Shown piece by piece: positions 8,645 through 62,399 of a stretch of 64,000 nt of DNA. A program made the translations under genes and the position numbers. Under the pieces are notes generated by a model. That model did not search any database, was not told the DNA's origin, and worked only from the letters and a program-made list of their open reading frames with translations. The number at the start of each line of letters is the position of its first letter. Position 1 is the first letter of the stretch. The DNA is from a virus (Duplodnaviria > Caudoviricetes). The stretch lies in the IMG/VR virus record IMGVR_UViG_3300025016_000004; one strand, given 5' to 3'.

Positions 8645-8702
8645 AAAAAAACTTGTTTTATATTGAAACATTATGTATATTTGCACTATATATTAATAAC
8701 AA
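8645..8702 (+). promoter_or_regulatory. Bacteroidota sigma-type promoter P1, one of four near-identical copies
   Basis: TTG 8653-55 and TATATTTG 8676-83. Confidence 0.8.
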
Positions 8703-8731
8703 GACGGGTGAATACCCTAAAAAATTAGAAA

Positions 8732-8839
8732 ATGCAAGCAATAAGTATTATACATATTATGAGTTCGATAAATTGGAGACGTAATTCTTCAGTAGTGTCA
8801 GGTATGTCTATACTTAATAGTGGAAATTGGTTTGGTTAA
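8732..8839 (+). CDS. Leader peptide 1: MQAISIIHIMSSINWRRNSSVVSGMSILNSGNWFG
   Basis: Codons 4-20 are all I/S/H/M/N/W/R; contains antiterminator TGTCAGG at 8796-8802. Confidence 0.85.
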   Translation: MQAISIIHIMSSINWRRNSSVVSGMSILNSGNWFG

Positions 8840-8867
8840 CAAATTAATAAAACAAAAAGATAAGATG

Positions 8868-8901
8868 AAAATCCTGACAGAAATGTCAGGATTTTTTTTT
8901 T
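8868..8901 (+). terminator. Attenuator terminator 1
   Basis: AAAATCCTGACA-GAAA-TGTCAGGATTTT plus U-tract. Confidence 0.9.
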
Positions 8902-8906
8902 AATAT

Positions 8907-9002
8907 GGTATCTGTAGCAGAATTGGTAAGTAGTACCCTTATCGGGGAACATGCACTAGATTGTGGCTCTAGAGGATGCGGATTCGAGTTCCGTCTGATA
9001 CC
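8907..9002 (+). tRNA. trnH: tRNA-His(GTG) with a ~20-nt insertion in the D-loop
   Basis: G-1:C73; stem CTAGA/TCTAG; loop TT-GTG-GC. Confidence 0.8.
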
Positions 9003-9035
9003 CAAAGGTTTCAATTGTACCTTAAACAATTAAAT

Positions 9036-9110
9036 GGTGTGCGTAGCTTAACTGGTTAAAGCACTAGATTGTGAGTCTAGGGGATGTGATTTCGAATATC
9101 ATCGTACACC
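9036..9110 (+). tRNA. trnH: tRNA-His(GTG)
   Basis: Canonical cloverleaf with G-1. Confidence 0.9.
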
Positions 9111-9116
9111 CAAAAT

Positions 9117-9195
9117 GGTCGTGGTCGGGATGACCCCACTTCAGAGGTGAAGTGAATACATGTTTGGTTAGGGTTCGAGTCCCTTTCACTGACCC
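9117..9195 (+). pseudogene. Degenerate tRNA-like element, anticodon ambiguous (TCA or CAG)
   Basis: T-arm AGGG-TTCGAGT-CCCT; GGTC/GACC ends; remainder irregular. Confidence 0.4.
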
Positions 9196-9218
9196 AAGTA
9201 ATTGAGAGTAATATCAAT

Positions 9219-9234
9219 GTTCATTGACATATTG
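9219..9234 (+). promoter_or_regulatory. boxA-like motif
   Basis: GTTCATTGACATATTG; similar copies at 57863 and 59712. Confidence 0.45.
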
Positions 9235-9276
9235 GAAGTAAATTAACGCAACTCATAATCAAGGGGTTGCGTACAC

Positions 9277-9345
9277 ACAGGTCAGGCTATGGTAGCCAAA
9301 CGCTCTCCAAAAGCGTAGGACAGAATTCGATTTTCTGGGCTTGTG
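9277..9345 (+). tRNA. trnW: tRNA-Trp(CCA) with a short D-arm
   Basis: ACGCT-CTCCAAA-AGCGT; T-arm present. Confidence 0.75.
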
Positions 9346-9440
9346 CGAAGTGAGTGTCGTCCACGAGATGTACGCCCTAACATTCATTGATTTGTTCGGT
9401 GACAGCCTCGGAATAGGATGTTGAGTAGGGAACGACAAAT

Positions 9441-9513
9441 ACAGATATAGTGTCAATGGCTAACACAACGGGTTCCAACCCCGTAAATCTGGGTTCGAAT
9501 CCTAGTATCTGTG
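9441..9513 (+). tRNA. trnW: tRNA-Trp(CCA)
   Basis: Canonical cloverleaf. Confidence 0.9.
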
Positions 9514-9518
9514 CAAAT

Positions 9519-9600
9519 ACGGATATAGTTCAATGATAGAATGGCCCCAGCGAAGGGGTTGATGGGTTCCTAGGTTTTGGTTTGATTCCCCCTGTCCGTG
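9519..9600 (+). pseudogene. Degenerate tRNA (CGA-like loop)
   Basis: Acceptor and D arms intact; 6-nt anticodon loop; broken T-arm. Confidence 0.5.
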
Positions 9601-9606
9601 CAAATT

Positions 9607-9674
9607 GTGATGATTCTCAGATAGCTATATGGAGAGACATATTTGAATATGGTGGTTCGAAACCACACATCGCA
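9607..9674 (+). pseudogene. Degenerate tRNA-like element
   Basis: GTGG-TTCGAAA-CCAC T-arm; shrunken anticodon arm. Confidence 0.4.
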
Positions 9675-9751
9675 TCAACTACTAACTTATACCGAAAAGT
9701 ATGTAAAGTATCTTGTATATAATATTTACTATACAAATATGTGTTAGACTA

Positions 9752-9841
9752 GGAGAGGTGGCAGAGTGGTCGAATGCGGCAGTCTTGAAAACTGTTGACC
9801 CCTTTCGGGGTCCGTGGGTTCGAATCCCACCCTCTCCACCA
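9752..9841 (+). tRNA. trnS: tRNA-Ser(TGA) with encoded CCA
   Basis: Type II cloverleaf. Confidence 0.92.
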
Positions 9842-9887
9842 GATGTACGTTTTTTGTACTTTACATTATTTTCCCATATTTATATAC

Positions 9888-10541
9888 ATGGGAAGAAAAC
9901 AAAAAAAGTATCATTATATTTATAAGACCGTAAATACATTGAGCGGTAGATATTACATTGGGATGCATTCAACTGATGATTTGAATGATGGTTATCTTGG
10001 TAGTGGAATTAGATTGAGAAGAGCAATTAATAAGCATGGCAAGGAAAATTTTAAAAGAGAAATATTGGAATTTTGTGAATCAAGAGAGTTATTAAAAGAG
10101 CGAGAAATTGAAATTGTTAATTTGAATGAGATAGCCAAGGTTGGATGTATGAATTTGAAAGTTGGTGGTTATGGTGGGTTTATTAGTGATGAACACCAGA
10201 AATTTCGTTCAGAATGTGCAAATAAAGCTTTAAAAGAAAAAAGGGAAAGGGATAAAGACTTCAATAAAGAATGGTTAAAAAAGATGAAAGAGGGGGTTCA
10301 AAAAGCTATGGATAGTGGTAAAATGACTAACATTAAAGATAATTATGATTGGACTGGTAAAACTCATAAAGAAGAAACGAAAAAGAAAATGAGCAAACCT
10401 AAGAATAAAGGTGATAGTAACTCCCAATTTGGGTCTTGTTGGATAACTAATGAAAAAATGAATAAGAAAATAAATCGAGATGACGTTATACCAGAAGGTT
10501 GGCGATTAGGTCGAGTAATGAAAAGTATCATTGGAAGGTGA
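9888..10541 (+). CDS. GIY-YIG (Seg-like) homing endonuclease with NUMOD3
   Basis: YHYIYKT...YYIGMH...GYLGSG; true start at ATG 9888. Confidence 0.85.
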   Translation: MGRKQKKYHYIYKTVNTLSGRYYIGMHSTDDLNDGYLGSGIRLRRAINKHGKENFKREILEFCESRELLKEREIEIVNLNEIAKVGCMNLKVGGYGGFISDEHQKFRSECANKALKEKRERDKDFNKEWLKKMKEGVQKAMDSGKMTNIKDNYDWTGKTHKEETKKKMSKPKNKGDSNSQFGSCWITNEKMNKKINRDDVIPEGWRLGRVMKSIIGR

Positions 10542-10582
10542 TACCTAAACAGTGTGATAATATCGATTAAAGCGCACAGTTT

Positions 10583-10655
10583 TGTAATATAGCTCAGCGG
10601 TCAGAGCAGCCTCCTGATGTGGGGAAAGTCGATGGTTCGAATCCATCTATTACAA
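10583..10655 (+). tRNA. trnI: tRNA-Ile(GAT)
   Basis: Canonical cloverleaf. Confidence 0.88.
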
Positions 10656-10732
10656 CAAACCATCGCAAGATATAGTTGCAACATTTATTGATAATGGTCT
10701 AGAACGTTATCTTTAGATATATCAAACGATGG

Positions 10733-10805
10733 TCCGATGTAGCTCAGTGGTTAGAGCATCCCCCTCAGAAGGGGAAGGTCGGGGGTTCAAATCCCTCTGT
10801 CGGAA
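10733..10805 (+). tRNA. Type I tRNA with anticodon CAG on an Ile/Met-like body
   Basis: TCCCC-CTCAGAA-GGGGA; 5-nt variable loop. Confidence 0.8.
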
Positions 10806-10868
10806 CAAAGTATCATCGGAAGGTGATACCTAAACAGTGTGATAATTACGTATAAAGCGCACAGTTTT

Positions 10869-10940
10869 TGCGAGATAACTCAGAGAGTAGAGTGGCCCCG
10901 TGCAAGGGGAGAGTCGGGGGTTCAAGTCCCTCTCTCGCTA
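10869..10940 (+). pseudogene. Degenerate tRNA (TGC-like loop, no G3:U70)
   Basis: Anticodon loop one base short. Confidence 0.55.
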
Positions 10941-10947
10941 CTAATAT

Positions 10948-11031
10948 TGCGGTGTAGTCAGTAGATGGAAGCTTGCGAGGCTCATAACCTCGTGCCGAAA
11001 GGCCCCACGGGTTCGAGTCCCGTTGCCGCTA
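10948..11031 (+). tRNA. trnM: tRNA-Met(CAT), initiator-like, with an extra variable-arm hairpin
   Basis: 1:72 mismatch; CGAGG-CTCATAA-CCTCG; GCC-GAAA-GGC variable arm. Confidence 0.85.
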
Positions 11032-11037
11032 CTAAAT

Positions 11038-11070
11038 TGCGTTAAAGTGTAAAGGTTGCATTTCGACCAA
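11038..11070 (+). pseudogene. 5' half of a tRNA
   Basis: TGCGTTA-AA-GTGT-AAAGGTT-GCAT. Confidence 0.5.
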
Positions 11071-11130
11071 TAACGTTAAATAATATGAACTTTTACATAA
11101 TTCTTTATATTTATATAAAAAGTTTAAATT

Positions 11131-11760
11131 ATGGAATGTTTAGTGTGCGAGTTAAAATTGGGTAAGGGTAGAAGAAAATTCTGTTCAGATGATTGTAGAA
11201 AACAAAATAGAATTTTACAATATAAAAAAACTGGTAATCCTAATTCTTATTCAAGACAAGTGTCTAAACATAGGTTTCGTAAATTTAATCTTATTGAGTT
11301 ACGTAATAATAAAGGGTGTGAAGAATGTGGTTATATTAAAAATATAAGTGCGTTAGATTTTCATCACTTAGTTCCAAAAGAAAAAGATTTTACGTTAGAT
11401 GCTAGAAATTTAGCTAATAGGGGTTGGGAAGAAATTTTAGTCGAATTTAGTAAATGTAAAATTCTTTGTGCTAACTGCCATAGAGAAGAACATAACCCAG
11501 ATTTAAATTTTAAGGATAGGATTAAATTTGATGAAATTGGTGAAAAAATAAAAAAAGAATCTAAATGTGTGGAATGTAATGTGAAAATTCATAATACCGC
11601 AAGTAGATGTAAAAAATGTTTTGACATGTCAAGACGAAAAAATGATAGACCAAGTAATGTAATATTGCTTGAAGATATTAAAGAATTAGGGTATAGTGGT
11701 ACTGGTAGAAAATATGGTGTTAGTGATAATACTATAAGAAAATGGGTTAAAAACTCATAA
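11131..11760 (+). CDS. HNH homing endonuclease with zinc ribbons and a C-terminal HTH
   Basis: LDFHH...KCKILCANCHREEH; stop lies inside the tRNA anticodon loop. Confidence 0.88.
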   Translation: MECLVCELKLGKGRRKFCSDDCRKQNRILQYKKTGNPNSYSRQVSKHRFRKFNLIELRNNKGCEECGYIKNISALDFHHLVPKEKDFTLDARNLANRGWEEILVEFSKCKILCANCHREEHNPDLNFKDRIKFDEIGEKIKKESKCVECNVKIHNTASRCKKCFDMSRRKNDRPSNVILLEDIKELGYSGTGRKYGVSDNTIRKWVKNS

Positions 11761-11794
11761 ACTCTACGGGGTGGTTCGAATCCACGATACGCTA
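11754..11794 (+). pseudogene. 3' half of tRNA-Met(CAT)
   Basis: CTCATAA...GTGG-TTCGAAT-CCAC...CGCTA. Confidence 0.65.
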
Positions 11795-11892
11795 CTTTGG
11801 AAGTTTAGTAAGTTTTTCCTTAAAAACAACTTACAAATTATATATCGATAAGTAATTGCCTTGATGGTTGGCTGTAAATAAATTATCATTAT

Positions 11893-11979
11893 GGGTGAGT
11901 AGCTCAGTGGGCCAGAGCGGTTGATTGTTAATCAAAGGGCCTTTATAGGTTTACGTGGGTTCGAATCCCACCTTGCCCT
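11893..11979 (+). tRNA. trnN: tRNA-Asn(GTT) with a long variable arm
   Basis: GTTGA-TTGTTAA-TCAAA; 18-nt variable region. Confidence 0.8.
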
Positions 11980-12167
11980 CAAATCTTAATAATTATGGAA
12001 AAATGTAGTTAAAGAATTGGTTCAAAATTTAAGAGCCAGTGGGATTAACGTCACATATTATGATAATCCAAGTAAAGAAAAGATTGAACGTATTAATAAA
12101 CGTTTGGTAGAATTAAGAAAAAGAAATTCCTTTTAGTCCCTGAAGAAATTCAAACTTTAAGGTGCAA

Positions 12168-12193
12168 TCTTCAATAGCTCAGTTGGTTAGAGC
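12168..12193 (+). pseudogene. 5' fragment of a tRNA (Asn-type)
   Basis: TCTTCAA-TA-GCTC-AGTTGGTTA-GAGC. Confidence 0.6.
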
Positions 12194-12199
12194 TAAAAT

Positions 12200-12271
12200 T
12201 CTTCTCTCGTATAAAGGTTATTACGGGTGACTGTTAATCACTTTATCTAGGTTCGAGTCCTAGGGGAAGAG
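12200..12271 (+). tRNA. trnN: tRNA-Asn(GTT)
   Basis: Canonical cloverleaf with G73. Confidence 0.88.
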
Positions 12272-12345
12272 AGTTGTCGATATTAATCCACTTCCACGTA
12301 GTGACAACTGGTAATAGATGAATTCATCTAGCTAGGAGGTTAATA
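12272..12345 (+). ncRNA. HDV-like (theta-type) self-cleaving ribozyme candidate at the tRNA-Asn 3' end
   Basis: P1 AGTTGTC/GACAACT, P2 TATTAATC/GGTTAATA, P3 ACT/AGT, L3 TCCACGT, P1.1 GG, P4 TAGATG/CATCTA, J4/2 GCTA. Confidence 0.72.
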
Positions 12346-12588
12346 AACGTTCATTAAGTATCTTGGTGATTATATCAAGATACTTTTGGGATGTCTTAGG
12401 TTTAACATAAGTTTGGCTACTTGTATCGATAATACATAAATCAATCTTTAAATCATGACAGGCTTTTGATTTAGATATATCATTCTCTTGAATCTTTTGT
12501 AATTTATTGTTACCATATATAGGTTCATAATGAAAGATACCATTGTTTTAGAGTTGTTAAATTCTTCTTGGGTATATAATGGTTTCAT
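12332..12588 (-). pseudogene. Internally deleted PD-(D/E)xK-type endonuclease remnant
   Basis: MKPLYTQEEF... joined out of frame to GIFHYEPIYG..KLQKIQEND. Confidence 0.55.
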
Positions 12589-12632
12589 AAAGTTATTTAT
12601 TTATAAATATGTTAACATTTATAAAAGACGTT

Positions 12633-12652
12633 TTCGAGTCCTAGGGGAAGAG
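12633..12652 (+). repeat. 20-bp duplication of the tRNA-Asn 3' end (other copy at 12252-12271)
   Basis: TTCGAGTCCTAGGGGAAGAG. Confidence 0.85.
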
Positions 12653-12658
12653 CAAAAT

Positions 12659-12746
12659 GGAAGGGTGACAGAGTGGTAATTGTGCCAGTTTGCTAAACTG
12701 AGGCTGGGCGTGAAAACCCACGAGGGTTCGATTCCCTCTCCTTCCG
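12659..12746 (+). tRNA. trnS: tRNA-Ser(GCT)
   Basis: Type II cloverleaf with G73. Confidence 0.92.
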
Positions 12747-12989
12747 CAATTATAATGGAAAATATTCTACTAAAAACACGTTATAGTGGAAAATATTTGT
12801 AAATTATTATAAATTTTACCGTTATAACGGAAAAAATTCTATAAAAAGTGCATTATAATGGTAAAAAATGCAAATTATTGCACTTAAATACCATTATAAC
12901 AGTATAAAGTGCAACTTATTGCACTTAACGATGTATAATATCTCATTCATAGATATTAATATTATAAAATAGTGAATGTCATTCAAATT

Positions 12990-13063
12990 GCCTCCGTAGC
13001 ACAACTGAATAGTGCAACACCCTTCTAAGGTGTCGGTTATAGGTTTGAATCCTATCGGGGGTA
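12990..13063 (+). tRNA. trnR: tRNA-Arg(TCT)
   Basis: Canonical cloverleaf. Confidence 0.9.
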
Positions 13064-13129
13064 CAAATTATGTTTCATAGTCGAATAGTAAGTTTTAACC
13101 TGTCATAGGTGATATGAAACATAACAAAA

Positions 13130-17180: not shown

Positions 17181-17252
17181 GGACTTGTAGTTTAATTGGA
17201 AAAATCTGGCTTTCCTAAAGCTAAGACCTCAGTTCGACTCTGGGCGAGTTCA
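17181..17252 (+). tRNA. trnR: tRNA-Arg(CCT), followed by a 3'-half tRNA remnant
   Basis: TGGCT-TTCCTAA-AGCTA; extra T-arm at ~17262-17288. Confidence 0.75.
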
Positions 17253-17308
17253 CAACTCTAGATTCAGGTTCGAAGCCTGATGGAGTCACTAATATTAACA
17301 AAGTTTTT

Positions 17309-17611
17309 ATGAAGAAAAAAATTTTCTATAGGGTGGGTAATATTACCACTAATCAGGGGTTATGGTATAATATAGATGGTGAGTTCACAGGTCTTATTCA
17401 TAAAGAATTTAATTTTTGTAGAAATAATCTATTACCGATGCCATTTGATGAAAACATTATTGGTTATTTATCGTGTACTGATACATTAGAAAATTTATTT
17501 GAATGGTTTCCAAAAGAGGATATCGTTAGATTAGAAGAACATGGGTATTATCTTAGGGTTTATGAGTCAAAAGATTATAAATTTTACAATAACCATTGGA
17601 TATTTAATTAA
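17309..17611 (+). CDS. Hypothetical protein
   Basis: ORF track. Confidence 0.6.
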   Translation: MKKKIFYRVGNITTNQGLWYNIDGEFTGLIHKEFNFCRNNLLPMPFDENIIGYLSCTDTLENLFEWFPKEDIVRLEEHGYYLRVYESKDYKFYNNHWIFN

Positions 17612-17671
17612 TATAATGCAAAACTAATAAAAACGATTCCAATGGAATTACTTAAAACAAATTAATGAAAT

Positions 17672-18010
17672 ATGTACGAATATAAAGCAAAAATAACATC
17701 AGTTTATGATGGTGATACAGTTACAGCTGAAATAGACTTAGGGTTTAATGTAAAGATAACTGAAAAAATTAGATTACTTAGAATCAACACACCAGAAATA
17801 CGTGGCGCAGAGCGTGAACTTGGTTTAATAACTAGAGATAGGCTTAGAGAATTAATTCTAGATAAGGATGTGGCGATTCACACAATTAAAGATAAACAAG
17901 GTAAATATGGTAGGTATTTGGGTGAGATATTTTTAAGTACTGATGTGGAAACTATAAACATTAATGATTTGCTAGTAACTGAAGGGTTAGCTGAATATAA
18001 AGAATATTAA
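17672..18010 (+). CDS. Thermonuclease (SNase-like)
   Basis: VYDGDT..IRLLRINTPE...GKYGRYL. Confidence 0.88.
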   Translation: MYEYKAKITSVYDGDTVTAEIDLGFNVKITEKIRLLRINTPEIRGAERELGLITRDRLRELILDKDVAIHTIKDKQGKYGRYLGEIFLSTDVETININDLLVTEGLAEYKEY

Positions 18011-18083
18011 AACGTATGGTTGACCACAATACCTTAATTGTGGTAAATGGCGGCATAGCCGAGGGGGTCTTTATAAAATAAAT

Positions 18084-18162
18084 GCGGGTGTAGCCCCGTT
18101 GGTTTTCTAAACCGATAAGGGTAGCGGAGCTGAAAACGTGGGTTCGAATCCCACTGTCGTTA
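18084..18162 (+). ncRNA. Non-canonical tRNA-like RNA, no D-arm, anticodon TCT
   Basis: GTTGGT-TTTCTAA-ACCGAT; TAGCGG segment; T-arm. Confidence 0.6.
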
Positions 18163-18196
18163 CATATTTATTATTAAATAATTTACTTCCAAAAAT

Positions 18197-18234
18197 GGCG
18201 ATGTATTCCCCTAGTCTTCGAAACTAGAGAAGGA
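18197..18234 (+). pseudogene. 5' part of a non-canonical tRNA-like RNA (TCG)
   Basis: CTAGT-CTTCGAA-ACTAG flanked by TCC/GGA. Confidence 0.5.
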
Positions 18235-18244
18235 TTTTAAAAAT

Positions 18245-18324
18245 GGCGGTGTAACCGAGGTGGTCTTCGAAACCATTAAACGTAATTGGAGTTGTAAATA
18301 AGAGTTCGAATCTCTTGGCCGTCA
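18245..18324 (+). ncRNA. Non-canonical tRNA-like RNA, no D-arm, anticodon TCG
   Basis: GTGGT-CTTCGAA-ACCAT; CGTAATTGG segment; T-arm. Confidence 0.68.
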
Positions 18325-18374
18325 CAATAGTTATATCGAGTGCCTTAAACCGAATGTTAATCACAACTATTTAT

Positions 18375-18447
18375 GGCTCTATAGCATAGCGGATAATGCC
18401 ACTGGTTACGAACCAGTAGAGCGGGGGTTCGAATCCCTCTAGGGTCA
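18375..18447 (+). tRNA. trnR: tRNA-Arg(ACG), followed by a duplicated 3' half (~18455-18492)
   Basis: Canonical cloverleaf. Confidence 0.9.
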
Positions 18448-18508
18448 CTACAATAAACCAGCAATGGGGTTCGAATCCCTCTAGAATCACTATGGCACAT
18501 TTATTGGT

Positions 18509-43500: not shown

Positions 43501-43557
43501 AAAAAAACTTGTTTTTTATTTAAACAATTACTATATTTGCACATATATATTAACAAG
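43501..43557 (+). promoter_or_regulatory. Promoter P2
   Basis: TTG 43509-11; TATATTTG 43532-39. Confidence 0.8.
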
Positions 43558-43742: not shown

Positions 43743-43775
43743 AAAAGCTCGATGTTAACGCATCGAGCTTTTTTA
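43743..43775 (+). terminator. Attenuator terminator 2
   Basis: AAAAGCTCGATG-TTAACG-CATCGAGCTTTTTT. Confidence 0.9.
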
Positions 43776-43776
43776 T

Positions 43777-43861
43777 GCACTAGTGCTCCGAGTGGTCGAA
43801 GGGGGTGGTCTGCAAAACCGCCAGAGAAATCTCAACGTTGGTTCGAATCCAACCTAGTGCT
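43777..43861 (+). tRNA. trnC: tRNA-Cys(GCA) with a long variable arm
   Basis: GTGGT-CTGCAAA-ACCGC; U73. Confidence 0.9.
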
Positions 43862-43873
43862 CAAAATAAAAAT

Positions 43874-43959
43874 GCGGCCATAGTTCAGTAGGTCAAGAGC
43901 ACCACCCTTACAAGGTGGGGGCGAATAGTATAACGGGGGTTCGAATCCCTCTGGCCGCA
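43874..43959 (+). tRNA. trnV: tRNA-Val(TAC) with a long variable region
   Basis: CCACC-CTTACAA-GGTGG. Confidence 0.85.
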
Positions 43960-44019
43960 CAACAATTGTGAGGCCATCTGTTATGTTGCAACATAAAATG
44001 ATGGTCTGAATATCTAAAT

Positions 44020-44151
44020 GAGCGTATGGTGAAATTGGTAGCCACGGGGACCTAACCGTCTTAATGACTAGCCGCAGACTTGCCATCTGGGTTGAAGGGT
44101 GAACCCTCTGTTATAGGCATATACGTATAGGTTCGAATCCTATTGCAGTTA
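44020..44151 (+). pseudogene. tRNA-Leu-like gene with a ~55-nt structured insertion
   Basis: Leu-type D-arm and T-arm; inserted hairpins. Confidence 0.5.
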
Positions 44152-44164
44152 TTTAGATGATAAT

Positions 44165-44250
44165 GGGGATGTGGTGGAATTGGTAGACACGCTGGTTTTA
44201 AGCATCAGTGCCTCGAAAGGGGCGTGTGGGTTCGACTCCCACCATCCCCA
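44165..44250 (+). tRNA. trnL: tRNA-Leu(TAA)
   Basis: Type II cloverleaf. Confidence 0.92.
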
Positions 44251-44255
44251 CAATT

Positions 44256-44329
44256 GGCCCCATAGCTCAGTGGTTTAGAGCGTCTCTTTTACACGGAGAA
44301 GGTCTTAGGTTCGATTCCTAATGGGGCTA
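44256..44329 (+). tRNA. trnV: tRNA-Val(TAC)
   Basis: Canonical cloverleaf. Confidence 0.92.
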
Positions 44330-44493
44330 CATGAAAAATTGGAATAAAATAATAGCACCAAAAGTTGAAATGTCTATGAATGAATTGGTTAAAACAAAGT
44401 CATCAAATATAGAAGGTTATTTTGAAATAATAGAAAAATTAACATGTAGTAAAATAATAAAAAACGATAATAATATATCAATTTTTATGTAAG

Positions 44494-44570
44494 CACCCCC
44501 ATGGTGCACGTTGGAATGCACAACAGGTTTAAGCCCTGTCGTTTCGTGGGTTCGATTCCCACTGGGGTAC
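44494..44570 (+). tRNA. tRNA with anticodon TAA (Leu) but a short variable loop
   Basis: ACAGG-TTTAAGC-CCTGT; 6-nt variable loop. Confidence 0.78.
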
Positions 44571-44910
44571 AAAATTAAAATTATGGAAATTAGAATAACA
44601 AAAACTCCGTATTCAATATTTAAAGATGTTCCAAAAATTAACTATTTTTGGGTATATAGAAAATATAAATATGTGAAAGGGTTTCGTTTTAGGTTTTTTG
44701 GTTATAATTTTAACGTAACTGAAAATTTTGCAACATATAAATTAATCAATAAGTTTAAAAACAATGAAAACGCATACAATTGAAGTTTCGGAAGTTGACA
44801 TGAAAGGTTCTAAATATGAAATTAGTGAATGGCATAAACGAGTTGATGTTGTTAGGTGGGAACATGACTATGAAGATAAAATATATAGAATTACAATTAG
44901 AATAAAATAA

Positions 44911-44947
44911 CCCTCTATGCTGTACGTTGGAATTCAGCGTGGCTTTT
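44911..44947 (+). pseudogene. 5' half of a split tRNA-Leu
   Basis: CCCTCTA pairs with TAGAGGG at 45181-87. Confidence 0.75.
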
Positions 44948-44961
44948 ATTATTATTAAACT

Positions 44962-45048
44962 GCCCTTATGAGCAAAATGGCAAAGCTTGCTGGTTTAGAC
45001 CCAGTGGAAAACATAAGAAACGTTCTCAGTTCGACTCTGAGTAAGGGT
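44962..45048 (+). tRNA. trnL: tRNA-Leu(TAG)
   Basis: GCTGG-TTTAGAC-CCAGT; long variable arm. Confidence 0.88.
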
Positions 45049-45099
45049 ACAATCCGAAGTATTAATTTTAAAGTAAAAATAATTTAATTTTTCCTAACT

Positions 45100-46580: not shown

Positions 46581-46638
46581 CAAAAAAATTTGTTTTATAT
46601 TGAAACATTTACTATATTTGCACTATATATTAATAACG
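46581..46638 (+). promoter_or_regulatory. Promoter P3
   Basis: TTTG 46589-92; TATATTTG 46613-20. Confidence 0.8.
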
Positions 46639-46668: not shown

Positions 46669-46764
46669 ATGAGAAACTTAATTAACATATTTGAAAACGA
46701 ATTTTTCGCAGCCGAGGCAGATTTTAGCTTGGGTAGGATGAGAATTGTCAAAAATGAAAGTTAA
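46669..46764 (+). CDS. Leader peptide 3: MRNLINIFENEFFAAEADFSLGRMRIVKNES
   Basis: 11 of codons 8-19 are F/E/A/D; antiterminator GGATGAGA at 46736-43. Confidence 0.85.
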   Translation: MRNLINIFENEFFAAEADFSLGRMRIVKNES

Positions 46765-46796
46765 GTTATTTAAAAAATAATAAAAACAATAAGACA

Positions 46797-46829
46797 AAAT
46801 CTCATCCAAATCGGATGAGATTTTTTTTT
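46797..46829 (+). terminator. Attenuator terminator 3
   Basis: AAAATCTCATCC-AAATC-GGATGAGATTTTTTTTT. Confidence 0.9.
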
Positions 46830-46838
46830 GTTATAAAC

Positions 46839-46911
46839 GGATGTGAGGTGTTGTAGGTAACATGCTTGACTGTCACTCAAGCGATTGCGGGTTCGACCCC
46901 CGTGACATCCG
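46839..46911 (+). tRNA. trnD: tRNA-Asp(GTC)
   Basis: CTTGA-CTGTCAC-TCAAG; G73. Confidence 0.9.
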
Positions 46912-46995
46912 CAAAATTAAATTTGATTATCATGGGATAAATAAAGAAGTGATTAAGAATTTCCTACTTAATCGAGATGAAACTGGAAGAGAGAT

Positions 46996-47254
46996 AATGT
47001 TCTATCCAGAAACAGGAAAAAAGTATTATATTGAATGGATAGGTGATGGTTATAGTAAATGGGGAGATTTCGACCCAGTAACTAAAAAATTCACTGGTAA
47101 TTATGGAACTAAATATAGAGGTTCAGTAACACCTAAAGAATCTGTAATCACTAAAGAGAATGGATTCAATGATATTCATGAAGGTAAAGGTTCAGCGTAT
47201 GAACACGTAAATTGGTTGCATAACCAATGGAAAAAAGAAAATGGTTATGGGTAA
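46996..47254 (+). CDS. Hypothetical phage protein
   Basis: 3' part of track ORF 46862; start placed after the tRNA at about MFYPETGKKY. Confidence 0.55.
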
Positions 47255-47423
47255 GATTGATAAAAAGAGAAATAGATTAATTGAGAGAATCAAAATGTTA
47301 GAAGATGAATTAACTTTATCTTTAACTAAAAAAACCTCTAATACTGTGGAAATTAATGTACCACTTCAACAAAGAAAGATTCAGGAGTTGAAAGAACAAT
47401 TAAGAGGGTTAATGTAACCCTCA

Positions 47424-47514
47424 AACAGTACCAGCGCATAACGGTTGGTGTACCTGACTGTCACTCAGGTTTGGTTTATCCATGTAGCGGGTTCGACTCC
47501 CGTTGTAGTTGCCA
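47424..47514 (+). tRNA. trnD: tRNA-Asp(GTC) with a long variable arm and encoded CCA
   Basis: ACCTGA-CTGTCAC-TCAGGT. Confidence 0.7.
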
Positions 47515-47575
47515 AAAATAAAACAAAGAATCATTGTTTTAACCCTTGTCGGGGAGGTTTTTAAATGGTTCATAA

Positions 47576-47646
47576 GGGGACTTCGAATAATGGTAGTTCG
47601 TATGGTTGAAGCCCATAAGGTAAGAGTTCGACTCTCTTAGTTCCCA
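47576..47646 (+). tRNA. trnF: tRNA-Phe(GAA)
   Basis: TATGG-TTGAAGC-CCATA. Confidence 0.85.
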
Positions 47647-47653
47647 CAAATTT

Positions 47654-47727
47654 GCTGCCGTAGTATAGCGGTCAAGTACACAAGGCTTTCAACCTTGCAG
47701 ACGCCAGTTCGAATCTGGTCGGCAGTA
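47654..47727 (+). tRNA. trnE: tRNA-Glu(TTC)
   Basis: CAAGG-CTTTCAA-CCTTG. Confidence 0.88.
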
Positions 47728-47738
47728 CAAATAATAAT

Positions 47739-47752
47739 GGTCGGGTAGAGCA
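47739..47752 (+). pseudogene. 5' fragment of a split tRNA-Phe
   Basis: GGTCGGG pairs with TCCGACC at 48446-52. Confidence 0.6.
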
Positions 47753-47830
47753 TAATAAGTTATTTGACATTTTGGTAGAATTTATTTTTTAAAAAATGTG
47801 TCTTTTAATAAAAACTTCATATTTATTAAT

Positions 47831-48322
47831 ATGAGTAGAGACGAAAAGATTATAGAAATGTATAACGCTGGTGAAACAGCCACAGTTATATCAAAAGAAT
47901 TAAAAATAGGTAGGAAAACAGTTTATAGAACTTTAGATAAGTTTAATATAACATTACATAAAAATAAACCTAATAATTGTCTAGTGTGTGGTAAGACATC
48001 TAAAAAGAAGTTATGTGGTACGTGTAACACTAATCTAAGGAGATATAGAGTCAAGAAATTAGCTGTTGAATATCTAGGTGGTGAATGTAAAAGATGTGGT
48101 TGGGAGGGTGATGTATCAGGATTTGATTTTCATCATAAAGACCCAAATCAAAAAGATTTTAATCCAAGTGGTTTAAACTTGGCTAATAAATCTTGGGAAA
48201 GGGGTAAAGAAGAATTGGATAAGTGTGAATTATTATGTGCACTGTGTCACAGATTAGAACATAGCACTTATGGGATTTTAGAAAAAATAAATTTAGAGTA
48301 TAAAGGTAAAACCTTTCTATAA
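47831..48322 (+). CDS. HNH homing endonuclease with an N-terminal HTH
   Basis: GFDFHH...LDKCELLCALCHRLEH. Confidence 0.88.
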   Translation: MSRDEKIIEMYNAGETATVISKELKIGRKTVYRTLDKFNITLHKNKPNNCLVCGKTSKKKLCGTCNTNLRRYRVKKLAVEYLGGECKRCGWEGDVSGFDFHHKDPNQKDFNPSGLNLANKSWERGKEELDKCELLCALCHRLEHSTYGILEKINLEYKGKTFL

Positions 48323-48395
48323 GGCTTGGTAACTCAGTTGGTAGAGTAGTGGACTGAAAATCCATATGTCACTGGTTCGATTCCAGTTCAAGCCA
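48323..48395 (+). tRNA. trnF: tRNA-Phe(GAA)
   Basis: Canonical; abuts the HNH stop codon. Confidence 0.92.
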
Positions 48396-48411
48396 CTATA
48401 CCAAAAAGTTA

Positions 48412-48453
48412 TTGAAGAACCATGTGTCGTTGGTTCGATTCCAACTCCGACCA
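48412..48453 (+). pseudogene. 3' half of a split tRNA-Phe(GAA)
   Basis: TT-GAA-GA-ACCAT...T-arm...TCCGACCA. Confidence 0.75.
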
Positions 48454-48545
48454 CAAATTGTGATAGTTAATCCTCTTATCTATGAAGTCTTAGGTAATGA
48501 AACTAGTCTCGGTAGACAATGTGCACATTGATTCTACCCAAATAT

Positions 48546-48617
48546 GGCCCATTCGTCTAATGGTTAGGACGACAGGTTTTCGACCTGTAAACGAGAGTTC
48601 GACTCTCTCATGGGCTA
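48546..48617 (+). tRNA. trnE: tRNA-Glu(TTC)
   Basis: ACAGG-TTTTCGA-CCTGT. Confidence 0.9.
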
Positions 48618-48649
48618 CAAGTTTGCAAACTAAGGTTATTAATTTCCTT

Positions 48650-48715
48650 GGGGGTATCGTCTAACTGGTTAGGATAGCTATTGGTAAGATATGGGTTCGA
48701 GTCCCATTGTTTCCA
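48650..48715 (+). pseudogene. Glu-type tRNA with a deleted anticodon arm
   Basis: D and T arms intact. Confidence 0.6.
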
Positions 48716-48726
48716 AAAAATTAATA

Positions 48727-48801
48727 TGGTTTATCGTCTAAATGGCAAAAGATACTGTGCGTGTCAGTACAGAGATGGAGGTTCGAGCCCTCCGAAAACC
48801 G
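48727..48801 (+). pseudogene. Asp-type tRNA with an 8-nt anticodon loop
   Basis: CTGTG-CGTGTCAG-TACAG; G73. Confidence 0.6.
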
Positions 48802-48808
48802 CAATATG

Positions 48809-48844
48809 GGGGGCACATGTACCAAGGCAAGGCGTTGGACATTT
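48809..48844 (+). pseudogene. 5' half of a split tRNA-Ala
   Basis: GGGGGCA pairs with TGTCTCC at 49622-28; GGACA pairs with TGTCC. Confidence 0.75.
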
Positions 48845-48891
48845 ACCTAAACTTATGTGGTCGTTTCGATTATTTTGTGATATTTATTAAT

Positions 48892-49533
48892 ATGAAAGAA
48901 TGTCCAAAGTGTGGTAATAACCACCATAAAAAGGGTAAGTTTTGTTCTAGGTCTTGTGCTAATAGTAGAACTTGGTCCAAAGAAGATAAAAGTAAAAAAT
49001 CTGAAATCGCTAAAAAATCTGAAAAAGTTTTATTGGCCAATCGTGACCCTGAAAGAAGAAAGAATCTCTCAATATCAGCAAAAGCCCAAGCAAAAGTTGG
49101 TAACATTAATTGGAGTAAATTACATACTAAAGATGTTATTAACAAGGCCTTAAAAACTAAAAAGCTTAAAAGGGAACTATGGTTAGATTCATTTGATAGG
49201 AGTGATAAAATTGAATACCGTAAAGCTTGTAAATTTAAATTTAGTCTTAATTCATACCCAGATAAATTTGATTTTTGGTTGATTGAAGAGTATGGCTGGT
49301 ATAAAGCTAAAAATATGGGTGACAATCCAAATGGGATAAGTAGAGACCATATGTACTCAATTAGTGAAGGATTTAAAAATGGTGTTGACCCGTATTATAT
49401 TAGTCACCCAGCCAATTGTAAATTAATGAGGCATGGTGAAAATAATAAAAAAGATGGTAAAAGTAGTATTAATCTAGAAGATTTAATAAAAAAAGTTAAT
49501 AAATGGGATAATAAATATGGGCCGTTAGCATAA
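48892..49533 (+). CDS. HNH homing endonuclease
   Basis: CPKC..FCSRSCA; SRDHMYS...HPANC...N; true start at 48892. Confidence 0.82.
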   Translation: MKECPKCGNNHHKKGKFCSRSCANSRTWSKEDKSKKSEIAKKSEKVLLANRDPERRKNLSISAKAQAKVGNINWSKLHTKDVINKALKTKKLKRELWLDSFDRSDKIEYRKACKFKFSLNSYPDKFDFWLIEEYGWYKAKNMGDNPNGISRDHMYSISEGFKNGVDPYYISHPANCKLMRHGENNKKDGKSSINLEDLIKKVNKWDNKYGPLA

Positions 49534-49591
49534 ATGGCAAATGCTCTTCATTTGCAATGAGGAAGATTGGGTTCGAATCCCAGCGTGTCCA
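49519..49591 (+). tRNA. trnA: tRNA-Ala(TGC), overlapping the HNH stop; acceptor stem imperfect
   Basis: CTTCA-TTTGCAA-TGAGG; G3:U70. Confidence 0.75.
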
Positions 49592-49629
49592 CAATGTCCG
49601 AGAGAAGGATTCGATTTCCTTTGTCTCCA
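49592..49629 (+). pseudogene. 3' half of a split tRNA-Ala
   Basis: CAA-TGTCC...AAGGA-TTCGATT-TCCTT-TGTCTCCA. Confidence 0.75.
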
Positions 49630-58706: not shown

Positions 58707-58708
58707 AA

Positions 58709-59168: not shown

Positions 59169-59178
59169 AGTCCCTAGA

Positions 59179-59429: not shown

Positions 59430-59487
59430 AAAAAAACTTGTTTTATATTAAAACATTTACTATATTTGCACTATATATTAATAACAA
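59430..59487 (+). promoter_or_regulatory. Promoter P4
   Basis: TTG 59438-40; TATATTTG 59461-68. Confidence 0.8.
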
Positions 59488-59511: not shown

Positions 59512-59610
59512 ATGAGAAATTATACAACATATACGAAACAGTATCAACCGAAGGGCGGGAAGTCCCAAGGTCAACTGAGTATACGTTGTAGTGACATAAC
59601 AGAATTCTAA
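59512..59610 (+). CDS. Leader peptide 4: MRNYTTYTKQYQPKGGKSQGQLSIRCSDITEF
   Basis: Codons 4-17 are all Y/T/K/Q/P/G; antiterminator TCAACTGAG at 59571-79. Confidence 0.85.
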   Translation: MRNYTTYTKQYQPKGGKSQGQLSIRCSDITEF

Positions 59611-59640: not shown

Positions 59641-59678
59641 AAAACCCAGTTGATAAAACAATTTCAACTGGGTTTTTT
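59641..59678 (+). terminator. Attenuator terminator 4
   Basis: AAAACCCAGTTGA-loop-TCAACTGGGTTTTTT. Confidence 0.9.
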
Positions 59679-59727: not shown

Positions 59728-59736
59728 TATTTTTAT

Positions 59737-59823
59737 CTAGGGGTTAGAGCAGATGGCTAGACTCGCTTGCCTTGGGTGCAAGAGTTAGAAATAACATCGT
59801 GGGTTCGAATCCCACCCCTTAGA
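59737..59823 (+). tRNA. trnP: tRNA-Pro(TGG) with a long variable arm
   Basis: CTTGC-CTTGGGT-GCAAG. Confidence 0.85.
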
Positions 59824-59892
59824 CATGAAAATTTTTTGGATTTTGGTTCAAAATCTTTACTTATGTATAAATTAAAAGAATATATTAAAAAA

Positions 59893-59975
59893 CGGGAAAT
59901 GACCAAGGTAGAATGAAAAAAGGCTACGGGGCCTTGGAAGCTTCAGTATGGTCGGTTCGATTCCGACTTTCCCGA
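59893..59975 (+). tRNA. trnP: tRNA-Pro(TGG) with an enlarged D-region
   Basis: GGGGC-CTTGGAA-GCTTC. Confidence 0.75.
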
Positions 59976-60151
59976 CGACCAGACTGTTACTAATTCATAG
60001 AAGGAGAAACGTATCCTAGCATAAAATTAGATTTATTGGGGCATCGTCTAGATTCCAGAAGGATTTAGATTAGGTCGTAAAATGAAATAAGAGAATAGTG
60101 AACCTAAGAAATACGTGGTAGCATGGTTAACAATGTCTTGTCTCTTATAAT

Positions 60152-60224
60152 GACCTCGAAGCTCAAGTGGACGGGCATCTCCCTTTTAAGGAGAGGGTTA
60201 CGGGTTCGAAGCCCGTGGGGGTCA
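60152..60224 (+). tRNA. trnK: tRNA-Lys(TTT)
   Basis: TCTCC-CTTTTAA-GGAGA. Confidence 0.88.
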
Positions 60225-60314
60225 CAAAGTTCAGTTGATAGTCTGAACTGAACCAAAATTATCATTTGCCTATATCGCATACCAACATATAAAGCACTTA
60301 ACACTGGATGATAT

Positions 60315-60393
60315 GCACCATAGACTGAATAGGAGAAGGTACTGGATTTGTAACCCAGAAGGCTGGTCGGTTCGATTCCGACATGGTGCCCCA
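60315..60393 (+). tRNA. trnT: tRNA-Thr(TGT) with encoded CCA
   Basis: CTGGA-TTTGTAA-CCCAG. Confidence 0.82.
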
Positions 60394-60537
60394 CAAAAAG
60401 AGGATATTATTTGGTGAGTAGACTATCGAGCCAGTTATAGCGAGTATAGTTAAAGTGACAAGTAAGATGACAGGGCATATTGGGTATGTTTATAACAAAC
60501 CTGAACTTAGCGGTTTTGGTGTCGTCCTCTTTAAAAT

Positions 60538-60618
60538 TGGGAAGTAGGTAAGCGGTCAAAACGGCCTGACTGTAAATCAGGTGCTTAGGCTTCGGGGGTT
60601 CGAATCCCTCCTTCCCAA
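60538..60618 (+). tRNA. trnY: tRNA-Tyr(GTA)
   Basis: CCTGA-CTGTAAA-TCAGG; type II. Confidence 0.9.
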
Positions 60619-60767
60619 CTATACATGTAGAAAGCAATTATTGATGTCTAGCTTCAGCTTCGTGGAGAGGTCAGGCTACAATCTGGTGATAAGATTAATT
60701 ACCTTAAGTCAGATACATTATGAATTGTGACATATCGCATATTACGATATGGAATATTAGTAAATAT

Positions 60768-60841
60768 TGCCCCATGGTGTAATTGGTTAACACGTCTGGT
60801 TTTGAGCCAGAAGAGTCTAGGTTCGAGCCCTAGTGGAGTAA
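60768..60841 (+). tRNA. trnQ: tRNA-Gln(TTG)
   Basis: TCTGG-TTTTGAG-CCAGA; U1-A72. Confidence 0.88.
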
Positions 60842-60954
60842 CTTTGGAACTTTTGTACTTTTTGATATATTATATATAAAAGATTAGGTCGCAAAATGAA
60901 ATAAAGATAAAGAGGGAGATGTTTTAACCTAACATCTTTAAAAAATAGGTTAAT

Positions 60955-61041
60955 GGCCCCGTAGCTCAGTTGGTTTGGAGAAATCCTTAGAGCTTTCCGC
61001 TTTTAACGGAAATGTCACAGGTTCGAATCCTGTCGGGGTCA
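60955..61041 (+). tRNA. trnK: tRNA-Lys(TTT) with a GGA-GAAA-TCC hairpin inserted in the D-loop
   Basis: TTCCG-CTTTTAA-CGGAA. Confidence 0.85.
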
Positions 61042-61150
61042 CAAAAATTACCAGATGTTACCGTTAAGGTGGTATAAAAAGTGTAATTAATTGGTTTACA
61101 ATGGATTGATTTTATAGAAAATCACAAAACGTTACCGTTAATTACCGAAT

Positions 61151-61223
61151 GCACCCATAGTTTAAGTGGTTAGAATTTTGGATTGGTATTTCAAGGGTCT
61201 CGTATCGTGTACGAGTGGGTGCT
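61151..61223 (+). tRNA. trnT: tRNA-Thr(GGT) with a degenerate T-loop
   Basis: TTGGA-TTGGTAT-TTCAA; T-loop ATCGTGT. Confidence 0.65.
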
Positions 61224-61346
61224 CCGAGCCATTTGGATTGTGAAACTTGTGGTACAAGATATTGTGACCAAAGTTGTTAAATTATAAGGTATGATTTGGT
61301 TATTACATTAATATTTCGTATCTTTGTAGTAAATTAAAAATAAGAT

Positions 61347-62222
61347 ATGAGAGAATTAGTGGTAACACCATCGATAACAGATAGAAGTTCACCTTCATTA
61401 CAAATGTACTTCAATGACATTCAATCAATTAAGATTTTAACACCTGAAGAAGAGTATGAAATTGCGGTAAAAGCGTTTGATGGTGATGAAAAATCTAAAG
61501 AATTATTAGTAAAACATAACCTAAGATTTGTAATAAGTGTTGCAAAACAATATCAAATATATGGGATTAAATTTGAAGATTTAATCAATGAGGGTAATAT
61601 AGGGTTGCTTAAAGCGTCAGAAAAGTTTGACCCATCAAGAGGTTTTAAATTTATATCATATGCTGTATGGTGGATTAGACAAACAATAATAGCACACATA
61701 CAAGCAAACAGTAAAATTGTTAGACCACCACTTGGTAAATATATTAAATCATTTAAAATGAAAAAAGAATATACCTTGTTGGAGCAAAAGTTAGAAAGAA
61801 CTCCAGCTTACAATGAATTGGTAGACCATTTAGGTAATGAGTTTAGTGATTCTGAAATAGAGTTTTTTATTGATAATTTAAGTAATAAGGTACAATCATT
61901 AGACGCACCTTTAGGAGAAGATGATGATTCTATAACGTTATTAGATTTGTTAAAAGATTCAAATGATTTCGATTCAAATGACTTAGTTAAGTTAGGTGAT
62001 TCTGACATTAGAACTGAAGTATTACTTAGTAGGTTAAATGATGAAGAGAAAACCATATTAATATTATTATATGGCTTAGATGGTAGAGAACCAGTAAGTA
62101 TCAAAGAAGTATCAAATATGTTAGAACTTAGCAAAGCAAGAATTGCTTTGATTAGAGATAAGTCTTTACGTAAATTAAAATTCCAATTGCTTCATAAGGG
62201 TAATTGGTTGAAAGAAATATGA
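61347..62222 (+). CDS. RNA polymerase sigma-70 factor (RpoD-like, no region 1.1)
   Basis: HNLRFVISVAKQY; DLINEGNIGL.KA.EKFDP.RGFKFISYAVWWIRQ; SLDAP; region 4. Confidence 0.93.
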   Translation: MRELVVTPSITDRSSPSLQMYFNDIQSIKILTPEEEYEIAVKAFDGDEKSKELLVKHNLRFVISVAKQYQIYGIKFEDLINEGNIGLLKASEKFDPSRGFKFISYAVWWIRQTIIAHIQANSKIVRPPLGKYIKSFKMKKEYTLLEQKLERTPAYNELVDHLGNEFSDSEIEFFIDNLSNKVQSLDAPLGEDDDSITLLDLLKDSNDFDSNDLVKLGDSDIRTEVLLSRLNDEEKTILILLYGLDGREPVSIKEVSNMLELSKARIALIRDKSLRKLKFQLLHKGNWLKEI

Positions 62223-62325
62223 GGTAAAACAACCCCAGCAACTGTATAAGTAATATATTGTTGAGAGCTGACTCAACACTCCTTAGTGAACTGCTAGGTG
62301 TGAAAGGTAGTTGAGACACCGACTT

Positions 62326-62399
62326 GCGGGATTGGTGTCCAATGGCTAACATGTGACCCTTCCAAGGTTGAGCTGTCGGTTCGAATCCGACATTCCGCA
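62326..62399 (+). tRNA. trnG: tRNA-Gly(TCC)
   Basis: TGACC-CTTCCAA-GGTTG. Confidence 0.9.

Follow-up and report, generated by a model that had tools for sequence, protein, structure and literature searches.

Among the leader-peptide attenuators of enterobacteria, those of ilvGMEDA (Ile/Val/Leu) and thr (Thr/Ile) are multivalent, and trpL, hisL, pheL, and leuL are further members of the group. In the pheST operon of E. coli, an attenuator with the pheM leader places the Phe-tRNA synthetase under the control of charged tRNA-Phe, and T-box riboswitches bind uncharged tRNA directly, without a ribosome or an open reading frame (ORF). Here, we describe four units of comparable design in a 64,000-nt stretch of phage DNA (IMG/VR record IMGVR_UViG_3300025016_000004; Caudoviricetes), the whole of which is called the window. 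Each unit precedes a block of tRNA genes, and we put the probability that each works by ribosome-mediated (leader-peptide) attenuation of transcription, as in trp, his, and ilv, at roughly 0.8. An earlier reading from the sequence only had interpreted the units as leader-peptide attenuation of tRNA operons, an interpretation now supported by folds, relatives, and pairing.

The units resemble the ilv- and thr-type leaders in having a short leader (its translation being predicted here), a run of codons for several amino acids, four RNA segments with 2:3 and 3:4 helices and a predicted 1:2 helix, and an intrinsic terminator. Unlike those leaders, they would regulate tRNAs rather than enzymes, the product being what the sensor reads; they would sense up to seven amino acids per leader, without a Shine-Dalgarno sequence, and they have no sequence or Rfam relationship to the enterobacterial examples. 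None of the Rfam leader families (His_leader, Trp_leader, Thr_leader, Leu_leader, and others) matched; only tRNA reached the gathering threshold in the whole window, and nothing relevant was found around unit 1 at E <= 1. Like pheST, the units would subject a component of the translation apparatus to leader-peptide attenuation, but pheST involves one protein gene and one amino acid in a cellular genome, whereas the window holds blocks of tRNAs. With T-boxes they would share a terminator/antiterminator switch that responds to tRNA charging ahead of translation-related genes; they differ in having an ORF and a presumed ribosome sensor, and scanning the window and unit 1 with Rfam gave no T-box match. 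Known leader attenuators regulate biosynthesis, transport, or aminoacyl-tRNA synthetase genes, whereas tRNA genes and homing endonuclease ORFs were found here instead, and tRNA genes as the regulated genes are the point of novelty.

All parts of the module lie on the + strand. The four units repeat one layout, consisting of a promoter, an ORF of 27-35 codons, a copy of the terminator 3' arm (7-8 nt, exact, inside the leader; termed region 2), a terminator, and tRNA genes, although the stem sequences are unrelated among the units. Their features are as follows.

8647..8700, + strand: promoter of unit 1, TTG ... TATATTTGCAC, Bacteroidota -33/-7 type
8732..8839, + strand: leader ORF 1, 35 codons; codons 4-20 are only Ile, Ser, His, Met, Asn, Trp, and Arg
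8796..8802, + strand: region 2 of unit 1, TGTCAGG, codons 22-24; predicted to pair with codons 9-12 in the leader-only fold
8867..8901, + strand: terminator 1, stem 8867-8879/8884-8896 (13 bp), GAAA loop, U-tract
8908..13064, + strand: tRNA block 1, with an aberrant tRNA (8908-9002), His, Trp, Ser(TGA), Ile, Leu(CAG), a TGC pseudo-tRNA, Met, two Asn, Ser(GCT), and Arg(TCT), and with GIY-YIG and HNH ORFs interspersed
43503..43556, + strand: promoter of unit 2, core match at 43509-43542
43627..43710, + strand: leader ORF 2, 27 codons; codons 6-18 are Leu, Val, and Cys with two exceptions
43687..43694, + strand: region 2 of unit 2, ACATCGAG, codons 21-23; predicted to pair with codons 16-17 in the leader-only fold
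43746..43776, + strand: terminator 2, stem 43746-43755/43760-43769, U-tract
43777..45050, + strand: tRNA block 2, with Cys, Val, Leu, Val, Leu, and Leu, the first tRNA immediately 3' of the U-tract
46584..46637, + strand: promoter of unit 3, 54-nt consensus
46669..46764, + strand: leader ORF 3, 31 codons; codons 8-19 are Phe, Glu, Ala, and Asp with one Asn
46736..46743, + strand: region 2 of unit 3, GGATGAGA, codons 23-25; predicted to pair with codons 12-14 in the leader-only fold
46796..46834, + strand: terminator 3, stem 46796-46807/46813-46824, U-tract
46839..49592, + strand: tRNA block 3, with two Asp, two Phe, two Glu, a weak tRNA-like match (48650-48715), and Ala(TGC) (49518-49592), and with an HNH ORF interspersed
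59432..59485, + strand: promoter of unit 4, 54-nt consensus
59512..59610, + strand: leader ORF 4, 32 codons; codons 4-17 are Tyr, Thr, Lys, Gln, Pro, and Gly
59571..59577, + strand: region 2 of unit 4, TCAACTG, codons 20-22; predicted to pair with codons 10-12 in the leader-only fold
59645..59678, + strand: terminator 4, stem 59645-59653/59664-59672 (9-bp core), 10-nt loop, U-tract
59737..62400, + strand: tRNA block 4, with Pro, Lys, Thr, Tyr, Gln, a doubtful Glu-like gene, Thr, a sigma-70 gene (61347-62222), and Gly(TCC) (62326-62400)

The leader ORFs, anticipated at 27-35 amino acids in each cluster, were thus found at 35, 27, 31, and 32 codons, and the predicted near-identical promoter of about 55 bp was recovered as a 54-nt consensus at units 1, 3, and 4 (three matches with 1-3 mismatches each, 0 expected by chance) and as the core TTG-N20-TAnnTTTGCAC at all four. 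This core, which represents the Bacteroidota -33/-7 promoter type, occurs five times in the window, at the four units and at 57815-57848. The leader ATG lies 37-81 nt downstream of the assumed transcription start in all four units. No Shine-Dalgarno sequence was found upstream of any of the four leaders, where an A-rich stretch stands instead, as would be expected for Bacteroidota; translation of the leaders is a prediction.

The composition of the leaders tracks the tRNAs that follow them. Uninterrupted runs of own-set residues reach 17, 7, 9, and 14 in leaders 1-4, or 10, 12, and 18 in leaders 2, 3, and 4 with one mismatch allowed, and the run length has P <= 5e-5 for every leader under an independent, identically distributed model. 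Among 338 other short ORFs used as controls, one reaches the value of set 1 by the one-mismatch measure and one ties the exact run of set 2, and none of the 338 attains the values of sets 3 and 4. In the 4 x 4 matrix of leaders against blocks, the diagonal has z-scores of 3.7-4.7 and all off-diagonal entries are negative, the actual assignment being the best among the 24 possible. At the level of codons, 13, 10, 10, and 14 of the 19 codons from 2 to 20 in leaders 1-4 have a directly reading anticodon among the tRNAs of the same unit. Leader 1 draws on the Ser families AGT and TCG/TCA and the Arg families AGA and CGT, its CGT codons being read by a distal Arg(ACG) gene, and leader 2 uses Leu codons from both families. 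These data bear out the claim that early leader codons match the downstream tRNA identities. The further claim that the sets are disjoint and total 7+3+4+6 = 20 stood as regards the total and the partition, with two exceptions: block 1 includes Leu(CAG), and block 4 includes the doubtful Glu-like gene.

Downstream of each leader, a hairpin with a U-tract starts 27-35 nt past the stop codon (measured to the detector stem). The terminator stems (9-13 bp) dominate the minimum free energy (MFE) fold of the full-length transcripts. In transcripts ending before the 3' arm, the pairing of the 5' arm with region 2 is the MFE structure in units 1-3, whereas for unit 4 this pairing has a probability of 0.59, which becomes about 0.85 once a ribosome occupies the early codons. 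In leader-only transcripts, the MFE fold of all four units pairs region 2 with region 1, inside the regulatory run, and a modelled ribosome on codons ~19-29 masks region 2 and abolishes the antiterminator. Together, the folds would give the classical four-region 1:2/2:3/3:4 design, with the 1:2 helix taken from MFE predictions. The antiterminator segment that had been placed at codons ~20-25, complementary to the terminator 5' arm, is present in all four units, and the suggested folding comparison gave the terminator for the full transcript and pairing of the 5' arm with the leader segment for the cut ones. The first tRNA begins only 1-8 nt 3' of the U-tract in units 1-3, which leaves no room for a separate promoter there; the gap is ~59 nt in unit 4.

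No close relatives of the window were found by DNA among GenBank phages or by promoter pattern or sigma factor in IMG/VR. Searches by tblastn with the CCA-adding enzyme and the sigma factor returned distant relatives only, among uncultured huge phages (LR745206, LR756502, LR756504, LR756511, and LR756500) and Lak phages; the closest, LR745206, has 37% protein identity in the CCA-adding enzyme, and the others have less. The same module is present in LR745206, LR756502, and LR756504, with one unit in LR756500. Units were collected with a composition-blind detector, which starts from a hairpin plus T-run located <=450 nt from a tRNA and picks the longest ATG ORF whose end lies 5-95 nt before it. 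Applied to the window and to the relatives, for which the data comprised tRNA regions only, it yielded 26 units from five genomes, including the four of the window and two likely false positives (L021- in LR756502 and L032- in LR756511) that were kept in all statistics. For 20 of these units, the block that scored highest with the leader among all 26 was its own, as expected from the prediction that related huge phages carry the module and that leader composition co-varies with tRNA content. The diagonal leader/block z averaged 4.03 versus -0.17 off the diagonal, and none of 100,000 permutations matched the data, whether the window's units were included or excluded. The split of amino acids among blocks differs by genome and leader composition follows it, with blocks such as Gln only (behind a Gln-run leader), Tyr/Gln/Lys, Leu/Ser/Cys, Arg/Ile/Met, and Glu/Tyr. 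The first tRNA of the relatives' units mostly lies 5-30 nt past the stem.

Pairing between leader and terminator is likewise specific to the unit. The duplex of a leader with the 5' arm of its own unit has -9.8 kcal/mol versus -6.7 kcal/mol across units (0 of 100,000 permutations), and in most units the pairing region of the leader falls at codons ~19-27. A strict search for contiguous Watson-Crick matches overlooks the antiterminators of several relatives, which use G-U pairs or bulges; duplex energies recover most of these, and several relatives are still not distinct. Between orthologous units of LR745206 and LR756502, leader composition is kept and sequence is not, and region 2, the 5' arm, and the 3' arm change together from GTTCGG/CCGAAC/GTTCGG to ATTCGA/TCGAAT/ATTCGA. 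Such compensatory changes, together with the unit-specific energies, agree with the expectation that homologues would conserve the antiterminator pairing. A promoter scan of metagenomes found only the near-identical strain fragments L003 and L004 and two unrelated bacterial helix-turn-helix genes with the same consensus promoter. The L003 leader carries one synonymous change, which lies in region 2 and lengthens the pairing.

Two further observations concern L003. Its tRNA-Cys (1560-1650, compared with 43777-43862 in the window) has paired G to A and C to T changes at positions that appear consistent with the acceptor stem. Its tRNA-Cys is followed by an ORF in place of the tRNA-Val of the window, and the content of the block thus differs between strains.

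A similar arrangement was observed in a cultured phage with a GC-rich genome, Caulobacter phage C2 (MZ574430.2; host C. vibrioides CB15). An ORF upstream of its 12-tRNA block (Pro, Thr, Lys, three Leu, His, Ala, three Ser, and Trp) takes 33 of 38 residues from the set of that block, a second takes 18 of 31 from its own (Val, Ile, Gln, Asn, Arg, and Phe), and a third ends in an Arg run followed by two Arg tRNAs. The likeness to the window's units is one of ORF composition, and would point to a second lineage.

We propose that these units work in the following manner. A strong host-type promoter would start a transcript carrying, in its first ~100 nt, a leader of 27-35 codons, of which codons ~4-19 form a run decoded by the tRNAs of the block that follows. 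With fast decoding, the ribosome would proceed, region 1 would pair with region 2, the terminator would form, and the polymerase would stop before the first tRNA. With slow decoding, when charged tRNA is scarce, a stalled ribosome would cover region 1, leaving region 2 to pair with the 5' arm, and the tRNA block would be transcribed. The new tRNAs would in turn speed decoding and shut the switch; because the output relieves the stall, each block would act as a negative-feedback supply circuit for its own share of the code. Leader translation, the direction of the switch, and its physiological trigger are those suggested by sequence and folding models, and the natural trigger may be host tRNA decay, an anticodon nuclease, codon-usage mismatch, or starvation. 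The nearby genes for a CCA-adding enzyme and an RNA ligase fit a phage that tends its tRNA pool.

Several points weigh against this interpretation. The evidence is computational throughout. At equilibrium, the terminator wins under every modelled condition; equilibrium folding of the full transcript, even with a modelled ribosome, therefore does not distinguish the on state from the off state, the nascent folds alone are informative, and the switch must be kinetic, as in trp. In units 1-3, the equilibrium models prefer the 2:3 pairing even without a ribosome, and in unit 4 the nascent MFE fold without a ribosome pairs the 5' arm with the 5' untranslated region instead of region 2. The leader stop codons lie 20-40 nt past region 2, so termination without stalling hangs on the predicted 1:2 helix. 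Leader 1 has no CTG codon even though block 1 holds Leu(CAG), and leader 2, in which a hydrophobic run is followed by a Cys, looks like the signal peptide of a lipoprotein. Promoters other than those of units 1 and 4 may serve the distal Arg and Gly genes. The membership of these genes in units 1 and 4 is uncertain because protein genes intervene and because the sigma gene of block 4 has a TAnnTTTG motif of its own; separate leaders before them were looked for and none was found. The caveats raised earlier hold, namely that Leu(CAG), here confirmed, and a TGC pseudo-tRNA sit in cluster 1 and that the distal Arg and Gly genes, which are preceded by protein genes, could have other promoters. Since the leaders would sense charged tRNA, amino-acid starvation would also induce read-through, which more tRNA would not relieve. 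Finally, the tRNA regions sampled from Lak-A1 and LR756511, and most of those from LR756500, lack the module; it is thus clade-specific, and the detector does not find units everywhere.

Four other explanations were considered. The same hardware could serve a different signal, host amino-acid starvation or general translational stress, and time tRNA expression by nutritional state. It is established for trp and his that leader attenuators sense aminoacylated tRNA and cannot tell a missing amino acid from a missing tRNA, and general translational stress induces a tRNA array in Anabaena, according to PMC8421152. However, extra tRNA does not relieve starvation, which would leave the block-wise match of codons and tRNAs without obvious benefit, and the CCA-adding enzyme and RNA ligase fit a concern with the tRNA pool itself; we consider this explanation unlikely. 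Stalling in the leader might instead act through Rho, through cleavage or processing of the transcript, or through a phage tmRNA, a route suggested by antiterminator helices that are short (7-10 bp) and weaker than the terminators. Such a route is quite improbable, since the unit-specific pairing and the compensatory changes in all three segments speak for selection on the 2:3 helix.

That the ORFs encode functional micropeptides, with the hairpins as leaky terminators and the tRNAs expressed by constitutive read-through, would suit the signal peptide-like leader 2, but it gives no role to the complementarity between each ORF and its own 5' arm, and it is difficult to reconcile with orthologous leaders that retain composition and not sequence or with a composition that tracks the downstream tRNAs in 20 of 26 units; we find it hard to credit. 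Chance, or the composition of an AT-rich genome in which ORF and tRNAs have no regulatory link, deserves almost no weight. Random AT-rich ORFs are indeed rich in Ile, Asn, Leu, and Ser, and one unrelated short ORF attains a run of 18 for set 1 with one mismatch. Nevertheless, all four leaders are outliers for their own set only, the permutations over 26 units and five genomes never matched the data, and the same match recurs in the GC-rich Caulobacter phage. The run statistics and the permutation test effectively refute this explanation.

Taking leader-peptide attenuation as the preferred reading, it is likely that a codon-resolved homeostat of tRNA supply operates in large phages whose hosts belong to at least two unrelated phyla (Bacteroidota-type huge phages and Caulobacter phages). 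The code would be shared out among a few tRNA regulons, each placed behind a leader that, read by the ribosome, gauges the decoding speed of exactly those codons and whose ligand is the product, which would constitute a new class of tRNA gene regulation.

ARAGORN and Rfam recognize ~35-40 tRNA genes in the window, all of them on the + strand. Block 1 spans 8.9-13.1 kb, apart from stragglers at 17.2 and 18.4 kb, and blocks 2, 3, and 4 span 43.8-45.1 kb, 46.8-49.6 kb, and 59.7-62.4 kb. The remaining tRNA features and the ORFs found among the tRNAs are listed below.

17181..18448, + strand: distal Arg(CCT) and Arg(ACG) with aberrant tRNA-like genes, their tie to unit 1 being uncertain
8908-9002, 10869-10940, 13130-13206, 18049-18162, and 48650-48715: odd tRNA-like genes
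9795-10541, 11131-11760, and 47798-48322: free-standing homing endonuclease ORFs (GIY-YIG and HNH) among the tRNAs, inside blocks 1 and 3

A muramidase gene and other protein genes stand before the distal Arg genes. The Ala(TGC) call at 49518-49592 is weak but real (37.7 bits in Rfam; found by ARAGORN only with a lowered threshold), and the Glu-like call at 60963 in block 4 is doubtful, being without Rfam support. The odd tRNA-like genes have insertions or unusual arms, score 31-49 bits in Rfam, and were missed or oddly called by ARAGORN. Several tRNAs of standard identity (Cys, Val, Asp, Pro, Asn, and Met) are 85-91 nt long. The sigma-70 family gene lies between Thr(GGT) and Gly(TCC), its TAnnTTTG motif ~20 nt 5' of the start codon. 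The homing endonuclease ORFs would be co-transcribed with the tRNAs upon read-through because they lie inside the attenuated blocks.

The fifth leader-type promoter (57815-57848) precedes a GOLLD-like RNA and not a leader ORF. The stretch that follows it (57815-59170) spans ~1.3 kb without ORFs and has a higher GC content; it includes the GOLLD-like RNA at 58270-58704 (RF02032; 59.5 bits against a gathering score of 150, which is thus not reached; E 1.8e-14) and, at 58845-58934, a tRNA-like element.

Around the tRNA blocks are genes for a DNA ligase, an RNA ligase, a CCA-adding enzyme, a PARP-like protein, the sigma-70 factor, and two TnpB proteins, and the gene set is that of a very large phage whose host is of the Bacteroidota type. 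The DNA of the window is present in groundwater and aquifer metagenomes, and 6% of the sampled window words were found in one metatranscriptome run. An intein C-terminal splicing motif opens two ORFs, 26452-27414 and 32040-32999 (weak matches to Pfam Intein_splicing), the latter of which runs on as an RNA ligase; their sequence suggests split-intein or fractured genes. The word GGGTAGTTCAC has nine exact copies in the window versus 0.44 expected, at the positions below.

8504, 16544, 26354, 45258, 52698, 56659, and 59158, + strand: GGGTAGTTCAC
22932 and 49713, - strand: GGGTAGTTCAC

In the two copies inspected, a hairpin lies 5' of the word (8475-8514 and 59130-59168), and a compensatory change distinguishes the hairpins. 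Because the two minus-strand copies adjoin the 3' ends of the two TnpB (IS605 OrfB) genes, the element is read as probably an IS200/605 end or omega-RNA scaffold, with seven copies solo. Two of the solo copies are directly upstream of units 1 and 4.

It has long been asked why tRNA genes are present in phages and to what use they are put. The reasons commonly given, including those from work on T5 and T4, are a supplement that compensates for codon usage, the replacement of degraded host tRNAs, and counter-defence against, or escape from, tRNA-cleaving nucleases. Like other phage tRNA sets, those of the window would replace or supplement host tRNAs and have homing endonucleases among the tRNA genes; for the other sets, no description of control by demand was found in the literature searched. 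The case of Septu and tRNA-Tyr with SegB is an example of counter-defence by a phage tRNA, according to PMC13096335. The trn operon of Anabaena sp. PCC 7120 is an auxiliary tRNA array, silent by default and induced by translational stress, as set out in PMC8421152 and PMC10272220. As proposed for the window's units, its auxiliary tRNAs are turned on when translation is impaired, but its control is exerted at the promoter through direct repeats and the repressor TrcR, over one regulon and not codon-resolved blocks, and neither paper mentions a leader, attenuation, or a terminator. The sequence-only reading knew of no case of attenuation driving tRNA operons, and a full-text literature search, with most subscription journals outside its reach, likewise found no description of leader-peptide control of tRNA genes; a term search of the huge-phage study (PMC7162821) found none either.

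If this reading is true, the phage monitors its decoding capacity codon by codon and tops it up selectively, and which stress opens which block is testable; the match in C2 offers a tractable experimental system. With such a homeostat, the phage could substitute its own tRNAs for those of the host as needed, for instance when host tRNAs have decayed or an anticodon nuclease has attacked them. The attenuation paradigm would extend to RNA genes, in a closed loop in which the product is read by the sensor, and to hosts in which initiation is not led by a Shine-Dalgarno sequence. The leaders provide a sequence signature by which regulated tRNA operons could be annotated in phages from metagenomes and, if the reading is true, would be natural modular sensors for the availability of individual tRNAs.

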